From NCBI RefSeq assembly GCF_024502345.1, contig NZ_JALDNN010000001.1: DNA of 64,000 bases; one strand, 5' to 3'. The DNA comes from Escherichia coli (GTDB lineage Bacteria; Pseudomonadota; Gammaproteobacteria; Enterobacterales; Enterobacteriaceae). The position numbers and the translations under genes were made by a program. Below, one piece after another: positions 4,651 through 57,622 of this stretch. Numbering within the stretch: the stretch's first letter is position 1; each line of letters opens with the position of its first letter. The notes under the pieces are model-generated. The model saw only the letters and a list, made by a program, of their open reading frames with translations. It did no database searches and was not told the DNA's origin.

Positions 4651-5739
4651 TTACACCATTGGCACTAATGAAAGCGCGTTATCGGCAGACAGGGTAGGGT
4701 TGTTTAAGCTGCCGCTGGCGCGTGAAATTGCCGCGCAGGCTACCGCAAAACGGGCGCTGTCGCGGAAACTGTATCCTTCAAGAAAGCTATATACCAGGCC
4801 CGCCATAAAACCATCGTCAGCACCAAAACTGTCTACTGTCGTATGCGCTGGCGCGGTCAGCAAAAATTGTTCTCCATCCTTTTCGCTGCAATAAACTGAC
4901 TCATCGGGCAAATAAACAAACAGTTGCTGAACACCTTGCTGATGCAACGCATTCACTGCAGCATTACGGTCAGCATCGCTGGTGATCGCCTGTCCCCATA
5001 AAATTTCCAGCTCCGGTAAAGTGGGTTTCAGGGTGTGAATATGCGCCAGCCAGTGTTTGATTTTGCCCGCTTTGAATTCTGAAACGGTATCGACAAACAC
5101 CGGGATCTCATCAGCGAGGGTAAAGACCCATTCCAGCGCCTCGGCTGTCAGGTTGCAATCAGCCAGTACCACGCCCGCATGACGAAGTAAATCGCGCGAC
5201 CCGTTCAGTAGTTGCGGTGTCAACTGTTCCAGCAGATGGGTATCGTTAATCGCCAGCACGGTTTGATCGTCTCGATTGGCAATTGCCAGATACGTCGATG
5301 TGCTTTGACCATGCAAACGAACGCAGCCGGAGACATTCACGCCGGCGCGGCGCGTTTCTTCCAGGAGCATTTCGCCATAAAAGTCATCGCCAATCACTGA
5401 AAGCAAATGGACGTCACGGCCTAACAGCGCCAGATTGTGGGCGATATTGCGTCCAACGCCGCCTGCCGAGCAATGAATTGTACCGGGATGAGAAGCCGCT
5501 TGCGGGTAATGGATATCCGCCATCCCGCGAATATCCATATTGATTGTCCCCACCACTACGCAGTATTCCTGCTCGGTGAGAATGTAACCTTTGCCTTTAA
5601 TCCGGCCTTTGCGCATTAAATCCATAATATGCGCCGCAACGCGCGAACGACTGATTTGCAGCATGTTCGCAATTTCGTTCTGCTGAATCAGCGGGTTACG
5701 CCGTAAAATTGCAAGGATCTCCTTTTCCCGGTTATTCAT
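4651..5739 (-). CDS. yeiI: PfkB-family sugar/nucleoside kinase with N-terminal HTH
   Basis: 362-aa ORF. N-terminal winged-helix (EILAILRRNPLIQQNEIANMLQISRSRV) followed by a ribokinase-like core (GGVGRNIA; C-terminal DSFGADDGF). Synteny with K-12 yeiI. Confidence 0.88.
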   Translation of the reverse strand: MNNREKEILAILRRNPLIQQNEIANMLQISRSRVAAHIMDLMRKGRIKGKGYILTEQEYCVVVGTINMDIRGMADIHYPQAASHPGTIHCSAGGVGRNIAHNLALLGRDVHLLSVIGDDFYGEMLLEETRRAGVNVSGCVRLHGQSTSTYLAIANRDDQTVLAINDTHLLEQLTPQLLNGSRDLLRHAGVVLADCNLTAEALEWVFTLADEIPVFVDTVSEFKAGKIKHWLAHIHTLKPTLPELEILWGQAITSDADRNAAVNALHQQGVQQLFVYLPDESVYCSEKDGEQFLLTAPAHTTVDSFGADDGFMAGLVYSFLEGYSFRDSARFAVACAAISRASGSLNNPTLSADNALSLVPMV

Positions 5740-5741
5740 CT

Positions 5742-6599
5742 TCAGGCTACCGCTTTTTCAGTTTGTTGCGCTTTCAGCCAGGCGATCTCTTCTGCCCAGA
5801 TATCCGGGTTGATGGTTTCAAGGATCAGCGGAATGCCGTCGAAACGGTCGTCCTGCATGATCCAGCGGAACGCATCATGACCGATATTGCCTTCACCGAG
5901 GCTATGATGGCGGTCAACGCGGCTGCCAAAGGTGCTTTTCGCATCGTTAAGGTGCATCCCGCGCAGATACTTAAAGCCGACAATACGGGCAAAATCAGCG
6001 AACGTTTTCTCGCATTCGGCTGGAGTACGCAAATCATACCCGGCAGCGAAAGCATGGCAGGTATCAATGCAGACGCCGACGCGGGATTTATCTTCCACGC
6101 CGTCGATAATCGCCGCGAGATGTTCGAATTTAAACCCTAAGTTACTGCCCTGACCGGCGGTGTTTTCAATCACCGCGGTCACACCTTGAGTTTTATCCAG
6201 CGCAATGTTGATGGATTCGGCAATACGCGCAAGGCAATCCTCTTCTGAAATCTGCATCAGATGGCTGCCAGGGTGGAAGTTGAGCAAAGAAAGCCCCAGC
6301 TGTTCGCAACGCTGCATTTCATCTATAAAGGCATCGCGCGATTTTTCCAGAGCTTCAGTGACCGGATGTCCGAGGTTAATCAGATAACTGTCGTGGGGAA
6401 GAATTTGCGCCGATGTGTAGTGATATTTTTCACAGGCGGCTTTGAATTCATCGATGGTTTGCGTCGTGAGCGGTGCGGCACGCCACTGACGTTGGTTTTT
6501 GGTGAACAAGGCAAACGCGGTTGCGTCGATTTCGGCGGCGCGAATTGCGGCATTTGCCAGACCGCCAGCAGCACTAACGTGCGCTCCAATGTATTTCAT
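5742..6599 (-). CDS. nfo: Endonuclease IV
   Basis: 285-aa [42 protein letters not shown], recognised as E. coli Nfo. The stop lies 2 nt before the yeiI start. Confidence 0.97.
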
Positions 6600-53797: not shown

Positions 53798-53905
53798 ATA
53801 TTCATCCCTGAAATGTATTAATGAAATAAACGATATTTTACGCGCAATAAATGTTTGGCGCATTAGTTGTTTGAGCGAAAAATATCTGGAAAGCAGATCA
53901 CAGTA

Positions 53906-53991
53906 AATAAAAAAACCTGCTGGTGAGGCAGGTTCTTTTATTTACTATTTTCAGGCCTAACACCACAGCCTGTGCAACATCGTGTTCCAAC
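53906..53991 (-). ncRNA. orzP: Orz-type antitoxin sRNA (orzP-like), predicted
   Basis: Minus-strand promoter TTGCAA(54021-54026)-17 nt-TATAAT(53998-54003). The predicted 5' end coincides with an 18-nt seed (53974-53991) complementary to the zor leader at 54140-54157. Terminator hairpin 53914-53934 followed by a U-run. Length about 86 nt. Confidence 0.6.
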
Positions 53992-53997
53992 GAACGA

Positions 53998-54048
53998 ATT
54001 ATAACCACGGCTGGACCCCGTTGCAATTAAGATAATGAGATTTATAAT
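53998..54048. promoter_or_regulatory. Divergent orz/zor promoters sharing a palindromic -35 (copy 1)
   Basis: TTGCAA (54021-54026) is its own reverse complement. TATAAT lies 16 nt to the right on the plus strand (54043-54048) and 17 nt to the left on the minus strand (53998-54003). Confidence 0.6.
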
Positions 54049-54229
54049 CCTGACTGTTGGGACGTTGCGCCGGATCGAACCTATTTCAAGTCCTGGCTAC
54101 CGGACGGGGGGTGCTGCAGGTAGTGCCCTGATCCGGAGTGCAACATCGTGGTCCAACATACGTAAACCAGTATCGACAGGCAGTGTAAGGGTAAGGTGCT
54201 GGTGTTGCGCTCCTTAATAAGGAGAGCGG

Positions 54230-54319
54230 ATGGACTCGCTGACACAAAAGTTAACCGTGCTCATTGCTGTACTGGAGCTATTAGTGGCTCTGTTACGGTT
54301 GATTGATTTGTTGAAGTAA
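54230..54319 (+). CDS. zorP: Type I toxin, ZorO/ZorP family (29 aa)
   Basis: Hand translation gives MDSLTQKLTVLIAVLELLVALLRLIDLLK-TAA, with SD aaggag 7 nt upstream. One residue differs from copy 2. Hydrophobic helix typical of type I toxins. Predicted leader about 175 nt. Confidence 0.8.
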   Translation: MDSLTQKLTVLIAVLELLVALLRLIDLLK

Positions 54320-54340
54320 CGGGCAAATTGAAACGCATCT

Positions 54341-54370
54341 AAGGGGGAAAACCGCTTCCCCCTTTAATAA
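54341..54370 (+). terminator. zor copy 1 terminator-like hairpin
   Basis: aaggggga-aaaccgct-tccccctt followed by taataaaat. Confidence 0.4.
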
Positions 54371-54515
54371 AATGATTACTGTTTTTATTAATTCATCATA
54401 TAACTCATTTTTATTTATAAATTCATCGATTTTATATTCAACGCACCATTTGACCGGGATGTGAATATTTATGTTGGGCTATTGGCAAAAAATATCTGGA
54501 AAGTAGATCGCAGAA

Positions 54516-54599
54516 AATAAAAAAACCTGCTGGTGAGGCAGGTTCTTTTATTTACTACAGTGACGCTAACTTGCTGATTGTGCAACATTTCGTACCAAC
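54516..54599 (-). ncRNA. orzO: Orz-type antitoxin sRNA (orzO-like), predicted
   Basis: Minus-strand promoter TTGCAA(54629-54634)-17 nt-TATAAT(54606-54611). 18-nt seed 54582-54599 is complementary (17 Watson-Crick pairs plus 1 G.U) to the zor leader at 54748-54765. Terminator hairpin 54524-54544 followed by a U-run. Confidence 0.6.
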
Positions 54600-54605
54600 G
54601 AATAA

Positions 54606-54656
54606 ATTATATCCATATCCACACTCCATTGCAATTCAGTGAGTGAGATTTATAAT
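54606..54656. promoter_or_regulatory. Divergent orz/zor promoters sharing a palindromic -35 (copy 2)
   Basis: TTGCAA 54629-54634. Plus-strand TATAAT at 54651-54656 (16-nt spacer). Minus-strand TATAAT at 54606-54611 (17-nt spacer). Confidence 0.6.
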
Positions 54657-54837
54657 CCTGCCCGTTGGGAGGTTGTGCCGGATCGGACCAATTTTAAGTC
54701 CTGGCTGCCGGACGGGTGGTGCCGCAGGCGGTGCCCTGATCCGGAGAGCAACGTTTCGTACCAACATACGTAAACCAGTATCAACAGGCAGTGTAAGGGT
54801 AAGGTGCTGGTGTTGCGCTCCTTAATAAGGAGAGCGG

Positions 54838-54927
54838 ATGGACACGCTGACACAAAAGTTAACCGTGCTCATTGCCGTACTGGAGTTATTAGTGGCTCTG
54901 TTACGGTTGATTGATTTGTTGAAGTAA
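54838..54927 (+). CDS. zorO: Type I toxin ZorO-like (29 aa)
   Basis: Hand translation gives MDTLTQKLTVLIAVLELLVALLRLIDLLK-TAA, with SD aaggag. Matches the ZorO peptide of E. coli O157:H7 as I remember it. Confidence 0.8.
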   Translation: MDTLTQKLTVLIAVLELLVALLRLIDLLK

Positions 54928-54948
54928 CGGGCAAATTGAAACGCATCT

Positions 54949-54975
54949 AAGGGGGAATACCGTTTCCCCCTTTAA
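54949..54975 (+). terminator. zor copy 2 terminator-like hairpin
   Basis: aaggggga-ataccgtt-tccccctt followed by taa. Confidence 0.4.
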
Positions 54976-55414: not shown

Positions 55415-57622
55415 TTAATGGAAAATGACGTCAGGTGCGCTTAACGCCTCACTCAAATCAAACACATCAAGTTCGGCAAAAGTGACGGATTTATTGTCAC
55501 GGTACACTCGAAGAGAACGGAAGCTCATTAGCGCTTTGCTATCAACATTGTAGTGGTTAAAACCGGGTGAAAACTTAAGGACCAGCCGGTACTCGCCCAG
55601 GTCATAGACAAATGCATCCTCATAGCCTGACTCCCAGCCTTTGTATCGCATTCCCATAAGCTGCCCAACGGTAGCGGATTTACCTTCCCAGCGAGTCAGG
55701 CTGTTACTGGTTGACTCGTCAGGTGTGAGCAGCACCGTGCACCGCGCCAACTGGCGAAAAGGCGGCATAATTTCGTAATCGGCAAAAAGCTGTGCAAATT
55801 CACTGCGCATTTCTACTGTCATTTCTAACGGGTGGGCAATGCCAATCAGAGCGTCCGCAGGCAGGTCAATTGGCTCATCTTGCGCATTGCAGAACTCCCC
55901 CTCTGCGGCCACACGAAAGGCGTTGAGTAAACAACGCGGTTCATTTGCCGGATAAGCCCCCCATATTAATCGCTGGGTAACCAGACGGGTAAAGGGATGA
56001 TTAACAAACAGAGAATGAAAATCTGCCAGCGACCAGCGTCGGGTGGTACGTAGGGCCGTTTCAAGACGCGGGAGCAGGTTTTTGCTCACCTGAGTGGCAT
56101 CTTTTTTTAGCCCTTTTAGTCGGGCCAGTGCCTCGGGCGCTTTCAGTTGATCGTCATCGGCGCGCAACCGGGGAACGCTTTTCTGGCGAACGTTTTGCTG
56201 ATCAAAGATAACCGGGTTGAGGTTTTCATCGAAGCGAACGGTAAACTGCCGGGGACCAAAATCAAAACTCAACGCCTGCGGATCATCAAGGCCCAGGGTT
56301 GGGACTAATCTGTCCGCTAGCTCTTCCTGGCTTAGCCCGCGATTTTCTGCGACCACCTGAAGAAATTCCGCCGCGTTATCACGTAAGGGGCGGGATTTCG
56401 CCCGTTGCGATATATGATGCAGCTGTATCAGCGCCATATCATTATTCATCAGGGTAAGGATGTTCAGGCCACTGACAGCACGGGCAGATTTGCCTTCTTG
56501 TGGCCAGCCGAGGATCTGTGTCGTTAGATCCCGTGCCGTGCTTTCGTCACCAAAGAGACTTAACGCCAGAAATGCCCAGTTGTCTTTTACGGGGGCACCA
56601 GCTTGTTGCCACGCAGTGAAGAGATCCCAGGCAAAAGCTGCCAGCGTTTGTGGCTGGCAGAACGTTTTCAGTTGTTCCAGCCCGCTATAAAAACGTCCCC
56701 CCTGGGTAAAGCGCAGCATTTCGCCGATAATTTCCAGAGCGTCATCGGTAACAGGTTGATTATTAGTGATAAGGCGCGGCCTGGACCACATTTGCGGATG
56801 CCAGAAATCAGGGGCTTTTGGAATGCGTGCCGGGTAAATCTCTATTGGACTCTGTTTAAGTAATTGTTCCAGGGCAGGCCATAGATCTGTACGCTGCCAA
56901 CGATTGGCTACAGTTTGTAGCAATTCGCCATGCCCATGTTCGTAAAGTAAACGCAGGGCAAGTAATGCAGCTTCGCTTTTATCGCTAGATTTGGTGAAGA
57001 CAAGAGGGATAAGTGCAGTAGCCGTATGTTCCGGCCATTGTAAAATCCACTGGCGAGCCAGATTACGCTGGCCCGCAAAACGCTGCCAGCAGCTTTCCTC
57101 TGCCAGAGAGAGATGCTTACGCAGTCGGAGATCGAATTCGTTATAGGTTTCTGAGCGATAACCATAGCCATAATCCTCGTCCTGATACTGCAATGTCACT
57201 ACCAGAGGATCACTCTCATAACACCGCGCAATAAACTGGCGTGCAATCACCACCTCAGTCGCATATTCCAGCCCCTCTTGTTGGACGATTTCGTCGAGCA
57301 ACTGTTGGCTGTCATTTTGCGCGATACAGGCTAGCGCCGCCATTGTCCGGGGCGGGATTGAGGGTTTGTGTTCGCCGATCAAGTTGATGGCCTGCGTGAT
57401 GGCGGACTGCCACTCCAGTGAAAAATTTTCATAACGCCAGACAATGTTTTTTTTCTTCTCAGCTTTTTGTAGCAATTCATCACCCAGTGTCTGAATGATG
57501 CTTTCAGTGATAACAGGCACTGGTTCGCCCGGCCAATTGCGATGGCTGAGTGGTGTTTTACCATTTTTATATTTCAGTTCCAGTTGGGCGTTATCAGCCA
57601 GCCACGGTAATTCCTTGTCCAT
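55415..57622 (-). CDS. yehI: DUF4132-like protein, paralog of YehH/MolR with the central region missing
   Basis: 735-aa ORF. N-terminal 180 aa and C-terminal about 550 aa align with YehH residues about 110-295 and about 697-1264. The YehH 296-696 equivalent is absent (junction ...SLAEESCWQRFAGQRNLARQWILQWPEH). I remember K-12 YehI as 1210 aa. Confidence 0.8.
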   Translation of the reverse strand: MDKELPWLADNAQLELKYKNGKTPLSHRNWPGEPVPVITESIIQTLGDELLQKAEKKKNIVWRYENFSLEWQSAITQAINLIGEHKPSIPPRTMAALACIAQNDSQQLLDEIVQQEGLEYATEVVIARQFIARCYESDPLVVTLQYQDEDYGYGYRSETYNEFDLRLRKHLSLAEESCWQRFAGQRNLARQWILQWPEHTATALIPLVFTKSSDKSEAALLALRLLYEHGHGELLQTVANRWQRTDLWPALEQLLKQSPIEIYPARIPKAPDFWHPQMWSRPRLITNNQPVTDDALEIIGEMLRFTQGGRFYSGLEQLKTFCQPQTLAAFAWDLFTAWQQAGAPVKDNWAFLALSLFGDESTARDLTTQILGWPQEGKSARAVSGLNILTLMNNDMALIQLHHISQRAKSRPLRDNAAEFLQVVAENRGLSQEELADRLVPTLGLDDPQALSFDFGPRQFTVRFDENLNPVIFDQQNVRQKSVPRLRADDDQLKAPEALARLKGLKKDATQVSKNLLPRLETALRTTRRWSLADFHSLFVNHPFTRLVTQRLIWGAYPANEPRCLLNAFRVAAEGEFCNAQDEPIDLPADALIGIAHPLEMTVEMRSEFAQLFADYEIMPPFRQLARCTVLLTPDESTSNSLTRWEGKSATVGQLMGMRYKGWESGYEDAFVYDLGEYRLVLKFSPGFNHYNVDSKALMSFRSLRVYRDNKSVTFAELDVFDLSEALSAPDVIFH

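Follow-up and report, generated by a model that had tools for sequence, protein, structure and literature searches.

Tandem zorP/orzP and zorO/orzO modules in Escherichia coli: class-specific seed-target pairing and a probably tolerated mismatch in the left copy

RESULTS

Two modules of the zor-orz type I toxin-antitoxin locus

The window, by which we mean the whole 64,000-nt stretch of Escherichia coli DNA that was analyzed, contains a 1.1-kb tandem repeat at positions 53880–54970, in which a 300-nt block is repeated with 86% identity and a 68-nt block with 96% identity. Each repeat is a module composed of a minus-strand small RNA (sRNA) gene, a divergent promoter pair, and a plus-strand open reading frame (ORF) of 29 amino acids (aa) for a hydrophobic toxin. 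This is the zor-orz type I toxin-antitoxin locus of E. coli, with zorP/orzP as the left copy and zorO/orzO as the right copy. It has the same gene order, promoters, sRNA sequence, 29-aa toxins, and yehL-yehK position as zorO-orzO/zorP-orzP of E. coli O157:H7 EDL933. The ORFs that flank the locus in the window correspond to yehL and yehK beside the matching locus in E. coli records, which places it between yehL and yehK/yehI on the chromosome. Rfam family RF02083 (OrzO-P, gathering score 60) matches both sRNAs, at 99.9 bits for orzP and 88.8 bits for orzO. The modules were classed by the V1 triplet at sRNA positions +9 to +11, which reads ACG in the left sRNA (OrzP) and GAA in the right sRNA (OrzO). 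The small zor and orz genes are unannotated by RefSeq. No complete E. coli genome is identical to the window over the 1.1-kb locus, and the best full-length match listed reaches 98.5%.

In the left module, orzP occupies about 83 nt of the minus strand (53909..53991), from its 5' end at G 53991 to the U-run past the terminator, the stem of which lies at 53914–53934; the RF02083 match covers 53909–53984 on the same strand. OrzP +1 was set so that +9 to +11 reads ACG, as published for OrzP (PMC3919570). The seed at +1 to +18, 5'-GUUGGAACACGAUGUUGC, accordingly lies at 53974..53991 on the minus strand, where the plus-strand letters are GCAACATCGTGTTCCAAC. The orzP promoter (53998..54026, minus strand) has the −35 box TTGCAA, a 17-nt spacer, and the −10 box TATAAT, and the zorP promoter (54021..54048, plus strand) has the −35 TTGCAA in common with it on the opposite strand. 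The start of the 174-nt zorP 5' untranslated region (UTR; 54056..54229, plus strand) was placed in register with the mapped zorO start, because the zorO UTR is 174 nt long (PMC5397157) and the spacing from the −10 box is identical. The OrzP target in this leader, GCAACATCGTGGTCCAAC, is found at +85 to +102 (54140..54157, plus strand), where G 54151 stands opposite A7 of the seed and gives an A·G mismatch. The zorP ORF of 29 aa (MDSLTQKLTVLIAVLELLVALLRLIDLLK, beginning MDSLTQKL) follows at 54230..54319 on the plus strand, and ZorP is ZorO with T3S (PMC11264685).

In the right module, orzO occupies about 81 nt of the minus strand (54519..54599) and reads GAA at +9 to +11, as published for OrzO (PMC3919570); its terminator lies at 54524–54544 and the RF02083 match at 54519–54592 on the minus strand. 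The OrzO seed at +1 to +18, 5'-GUUGGUACGAAAUGUUGC, corresponds to 54582..54599 on the minus strand (plus-strand letters GCAACATTTCGTACCAAC). The orzO promoter (54606..54634, minus strand) and the zorO promoter (54629..54656, plus strand) have the palindromic −35 box in common. The zorO 5' UTR (54664..54837, plus strand) was located by counting the published length of 174 nt (PMC5397157) back from the ATG at 54838, and the start at 54664 obtained in this way is 8 nt past the −10 box. The OrzO target, GCAACGTTTCGTACCAAC, is at +85 to +102 of the leader (54748..54765, plus strand), where it forms the 3' end of the published EAP region at +73 to +102, and G 54753 gives a G·U pair with U13 of the seed. 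The zorO ORF of 29 aa (MDTLTQKLTVLIAVLELLVALLRLIDLLK, beginning MDTLTQKL) is at 54838..54927 on the plus strand.

Weak Rfam matches to STnc370, the Thr and Trp leaders, isrH, and BTnc005 were rejected, since all are far under their gathering scores. Those shown aligned, as well as the Trp leader and BTnc005 by position, rest on or overlap the Orz terminator hairpin. Adjoining yehK, an ORF at 55415–57622 on the minus strand has a YehI-like start but encodes 735 aa, whereas the yehI annotation spans 3,633 nt (1,210 aa) in the E. coli records examined and in the divergent metagenome contig L048 described below; the shorter ORF may reflect an internal deletion or a different allele.

Promoters and predicted leader folding

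Four promoter-like sites (TTGCAA/TATAAT) are present at the locus, each with 10 of 12 consensus positions, and the same −35 and −10 hexamers have been reported as conserved (PMC11264685, Table 3). The −35 TTGCAA at 54021–54026 and at 54629–54634 is its own reverse complement and serves both divergent promoters of each module.

[quoted passage not shown] The first 13–14 nt at the 5' end of the zor mRNA (GUUGGGACGUUGCG in zorP and GUUGGGAGGUUGU in zorO, with zorO and zorQ each two positions off zorP) are predicted to pair in cis with the constant target arms GCAAC and CCAAC, the same arms that the Orz seed uses in trans. The predicted cis pairing involves 54056–54069 with 54138–54157 in zorP and 54664–54676 with 54748–54765 in zorO, and in this predicted fold the variable core sits in an internal loop. 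Such pairing would fit the published closed state of the full-length leader.

The Rfam OrzO-P model begins at sRNA +8 and leaves out the first 7 nt of the functional seed, so an annotation made from Rfam alone would truncate the Orz seed. We also asked whether an inverted duplication of the zor promoter and 5' end could have given rise to orz. Both RNAs begin GUUGG...GUUGC and have the palindromic −35 box in common, but their 16–17-nt promoter spacers show no relationship, one being G+C-rich and the other A+T-rich, and pairing of both strands with the same target arms accounts for the motif common to the RNAs. The idea was therefore not supported.

Seed-target pairing and duplex energies

A direct reading of the sequence found the four 18-mers in the places and with the letters given by the original prediction. 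Aligned in register, the right pair (OrzO × zorO) forms 17 Watson-Crick pairs and one G·U pair at seed position 13, and the left pair (OrzP × zorP) forms 17 Watson-Crick pairs with an A·G mismatch at seed position 7, leaving 6 + 11 bp, both as had been described. All four 18-mers, including the A·G mismatch and the G·U pair, are identical in an O157 genome. When up to two mismatches were allowed, each 18-mer had exactly one other match in the 64-kb window, which was its own partner, and the 18-mers had 0 matches in 100 dinucleotide-preserving shuffles. Both repeats are already published toxin/antisense-RNA pairs, and the pairing seen in them is correct, ordinary, and far above chance.

The two copies differ in the center of both seed and target, as had been claimed, but the seeds do so at only four positions (+6 and +9 to +11) and not at the proposed 6–7; the targets differ at six. 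The changes on the two sides compensate each other, so the claimed co-variation of seed and target between the copies stands. Non-cognate duplexes had been expected to carry about five central mismatches. They do have five positions that are not Watson-Crick, but not five true mismatches, because OrzP × zorO has three mismatches and two G·U pairs and OrzO × zorP has four mismatches and one G·U pair.

Duplex energies were calculated with RNAduplex on the 18-mers of classes P, O, and Q, the last being the third published type of module, and the opening costs of seed and target were then added. The cognate 18-mer duplexes have energies of −26.5 (P), −28.1 (O), and −25.7 (Q) kcal/mol, and the six non-cognate duplexes range from −12.5 to −16.9 kcal/mol; for P and O, the cognate preference is about 10–13 kcal/mol. 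With opening energies, the totals on full-length and processed mRNA are −13.75 and −18.70 for P and −13.17 and −18.24 for O. The cognate Q total on processed mRNA is −13.5, and the non-cognate totals are −2.1 to −8.4. Whole-molecule cofolding left the ranking unchanged, and the cognate combinations are clearly preferred over the non-cognate ones. According to these energy models, P pairs no less strongly than O, owing to the higher G-C content of its core and a seed that is predicted to be more accessible. The models are approximate and leave out binding kinetics and RNase III geometry, and helix propagation might be slowed by a purine-purine mismatch.

Variation of seeds and targets among genomes

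We queried 5,426 complete E. coli genomes with short exact sequences. These genomes are phylogenetically non-independent, so that the counts overstate fixation as evidence of selection. The zorP target with the mismatch-making G was present in 2,863 genomes and the orzP seed in 4,682. The zorP target with the compensating T was found in 0 of these 5,426 complete E. coli genomes, and an intact compensated orzP seed likewise in 0 of the 5,426, its two partial matches being deletion fusions. The zorO target with the G that gives the G·U pair was present in 1,254 genomes, the all-Watson-Crick zorO target in none of the 5,426 complete E. coli genomes, and the Q target in 1,098. Relatives were sought by the exact DNA pattern of the RBS hairpin, and the same P and/or O seeds and targets were found with different flanks in E. 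whittamii, Escherichia sp. E1V33, and Escherichia sp. MOD1-EC7003.

From 111 sources, we parsed 130 modules in which seed and target are both present. These include 60 canonical P modules and four P modules with a single A-to-G transition in the target that retains a G·U pair, 27 canonical O modules and one O variant, and, for Q, 22 Q1 and 12 Q2 modules. The only point variants of the target in the 130 modules are A-to-G transitions that keep a G·U pair. The comparison of per-column polymorphism inside and outside the 36 nt is biased, as the modules were classed by exact seed, and it was used for the targets only. In a count over the seven distinct natural combinations of seed and target, pairing occurs in 95.2% of cells versus 85.1% in shuffles, and 0 of 500 shuffles reach the observed value; in slid registers, 29–49% of cells are paired. 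Changes on both sides occur at five pairs (+5, +6, +9, +10, and +11).

Position +7 has A·G in P, A·A in Q1, and G·A in Q2, and is paired in O only. The 17 pairs of classes P, Q1, and Q2 are laid out as 6(1)11, and O has 18 pairs including the G·U pair, so that all four classes are at or just over the experimentally defined pairing minimum.

Two different sRNA seeds accompany the Q target, GUUGAGAUGCCAUGUUGC in 856 genomes and GUUGGGGCGCCAUGUUGC in 238 genomes, the latter being the Q2 seed, which faces the same Q target as Q1; a purine-purine mismatch is present at +7 with both. This was observed in loci L015, L025, and L030, in nine other metagenome loci, and in the E. coli type strain DSM 30083 (NZ_CP033092.2). 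A target with T instead of G opposite seed position 7, GCAATATCGTGTTCCAAC, is found at 72–89 of L048 (metagenome contig Ga0209547_100093). This contig belongs to a more divergent Escherichia-like lineage and is 88% identical to the P module, with its sRNA gene outside the stored stretch.

Natural swaps, deletions, and decay

Natural target swaps were observed, in which about 30 nt spanning the 18-nt target have taken on the class of a neighboring module by conversion. E. coli JNE23-001 (L113, NZ_AP045064.1) has a Q target behind orzP, and E. coli SL112 (L112, NZ_CP043486.1) has a P target behind orzQ1; L046 and L042, two cut metagenome contigs, also contain swaps. The local sRNA is orphaned in the two complete genomes, where the adjacent module still encodes the cognate sRNA, as would be expected of trans-acting repression that is specific to each class.

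At a distance of 166 nt, the orzP seed gene and the zorP target form direct repeats. A deletion between them joins the 3' portion of orzP to the zorP leader, with loss of both P promoters. This deletion is present in two of the 5,426 genomes, E. coli strain 122 (L007, NZ_CP028654.1, around 1173–1250) and NZ_CM167685.1. Together with the target swaps, it shows that recombination between modules also uses the 18-mers as substrates.

Shigella flexneri CP182557.1 (L008, about 4775–5750) carries two modules that are decayed or altered. The zor ORF of one is frameshifted, and the other has an intact ORF with a shortened seed (16 nt) and target (17 nt), which form only 6 + 9 pairs with an asymmetric loop at +7.

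DISCUSSION

Published evidence and the proposed mechanism

Both sRNAs were found by Fozo et al. in 2010, who used primer extension to map the four transcription starts and recognized the complementarity (PMC2887945), and toxicity on overproduction has been published for both ZorO and ZorP (PMC2887945, PMC3919570). Wen, Won, and Fozo (2014) showed that OrzO rescue from ZorO needs RNase III but not Hfq, that the first 18 nt of OrzO are sufficient when grafted on other sRNAs, that OrzP at expression equal to OrzO leaves zorO unrepressed, that the V1 triplet sets specificity and can be swapped in both directions, and that compensatory zorO changes bring repression back (PMC3919570). The same study defined the pairing needed as 15 continuous or 17 discontinuous pairs; a 6(1)11 version of OrzO fully represses, and 16-pair versions fail (PMC3919570). 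Wen et al. (2017) located the target at the 3' end of +73 to +102, a region that opens once the first 28 nt are removed and at which OrzO blocks translation (PMC5397157). Shore et al. (2024) surveyed 2,439 loci, named the third type zorQ/orzQ, found the 15/17 rule satisfied by 99.8% of loci, and suggested that the variable pairing region may prevent crosstalk (PMC11264685). The idea of insulation is thus already published.

Pairing, specificity, RNase III dependence, and the translation block of the O pair have been shown by others, and by analogy the P pair is presumed to behave in the same way. Each module consists of a 29-aa membrane toxin gene with a 174-nt leader and an sRNA of about 80 nt that is transcribed divergently and whose first 18 nt would pair in trans with +85 to +102 of the leader. 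This segment is the 3' end of the region that opens on 5' processing, for which a role as a ribosome standby site has been proposed, and the pairing would lead to a translation block and RNase III-dependent decay. The outer arms of the 18-mer (GUUG.../...AUGUUGC) are constant, and the core at +5 to +11 differs between module classes. Because the core differs with compensating changes in the target, each sRNA would recognize only its own toxin mRNA class. We consider it very likely that the locus as a whole is explained in this way, by published zor-orz pairs with class-specific core recognition and a tolerated P mismatch at +7.

Insulation of the modules and meaning of the +7 mismatch

The original prediction of two insulated modules agrees with the energies, which favor cognate pairs, and with the published rescue experiments, in which the sRNAs are not interchangeable when OrzP is tried on zorO (PMC3919570). 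The 5' end mapped for OrzO also agrees with it, since the seed is included and 18 nt from that end are enough for repression. It might be argued that both sRNAs act on both toxin mRNAs via the constant arms and that the core differences are neutral, given that 13 of 18 positions are still Watson-Crick in the non-cognate combinations and that the full-length cofold of OrzO × zorP is about −12 kcal/mol. This is very improbable and is already contradicted in the OrzP-to-zorO direction, where OrzP does not rescue at OrzO-equal levels and V1 swaps switch specificity (PMC3919570). The compensatory covariation at five positions also argues against it, as do the two natural target swaps in complete genomes, both of which keep the cognate sRNA in the neighboring module.

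The mismatch in the left module had been taken to predict weaker repression there, with the A·G opposition making P leakier than O. The mismatch is real and breaks the helix into 6 + 11, and as at least 17 discontinuous pairs are needed (PMC3919570), P is at the threshold without reserve. Nevertheless, the P 18-mer duplex is only 1.6 kcal/mol weaker than that of O (−26.5 versus −28.1), P is equal or slightly better once accessibility is counted, an engineered OrzO of the same 6(1)11 geometry represses zorO fully (PMC3919570), and the mismatch is fixed in thousands of genomes, with the compensated allele in 0 of 5,426. Weaker repression of the left module is therefore unlikely. The modeled energies make it most likely that the A·G mismatch does not appreciably weaken the left module, since it would be offset by the more G+C-rich core and the more accessible seed. 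We regard the mismatch at P +7 as probably old, fixed, and tolerated, leaving 17 discontinuous pairs, a number shown to be sufficient. The simplest account of this tolerance is that pairing drifted to the functional threshold and that purifying selection then holds the remaining 17 pairs, which agrees with the invariant 36 nt and with the retention of a wobble pair in the only variants observed.

The purine-purine mismatch at +7 could instead be a selected feature that is actively maintained in most zor-orz classes, although we find this doubtful. If selected, it might position or limit RNase III cleavage or make binding more reversible, or it might break a perfect 18-bp direct repeat and so lower promoter-deleting recombination. 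It is present in three of the four natural classes, while neighboring positions show compensatory double changes, and the compensated form is absent in thousands of genomes. Seed gene and target do not form a perfect 18-bp DNA repeat in any class, as even O differs by the base of the G·U pair, and deletions between the repeats do happen, as in strain 122. However, class O is paired at +7 and works, a P-like target in the divergent contig L048 has T facing +7, the mismatch in P and Q may just be inherited from an ancestor, and the strain 122 deletion occurred despite the mismatch. Drift to the 17-pair minimum explains the pattern without selection, and a tolerated mismatch remains the reading that we prefer.

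The zor-orz locus offers a textbook-scale case of how tandem paralogous RNA toxin-antitoxin pairs avoid crosstalk via a few co-varying bases, and both the principle and this locus were worked out experimentally between 2010 and 2024.

Comparison with other type I systems

The closest comparison is zorQ-orzQ (Shore et al. 2024), which has the same architecture and the same constant arms and adjoins P or O modules in other strains (L001, L004–L006). It is absent from the window and differs in its core (target GCAACAUGGCGACUCAAC) and in having two different sRNA seeds for one target in the sampled modules. The tisB/istR-1 and shoB/ohsC systems resemble zor-orz in that a divergent sRNA pairs in trans far upstream of a sequestered ribosome binding site, and in the long processed 5' UTR, the standby-site logic, and RNase III cleavage (PMC5397157, PMC2887945). 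Their sequences are unrelated, and they are single-copy loci, so that they face no problem of discrimination between paralogous pairs.

The ibs-sib system of E. coli is similar to zor-orz in that several paralogous type I pairs are present per genome, as mentioned in PMC3919570. In both systems, each sRNA tells its own toxin mRNA from the others via short variable recognition sequences. The Orz RNAs, unlike the Sib RNAs, are trans-encoded and have a single 18-nt domain. The Sib RNAs are true cis-antisense RNAs that show full complementarity and carry two recognition domains.
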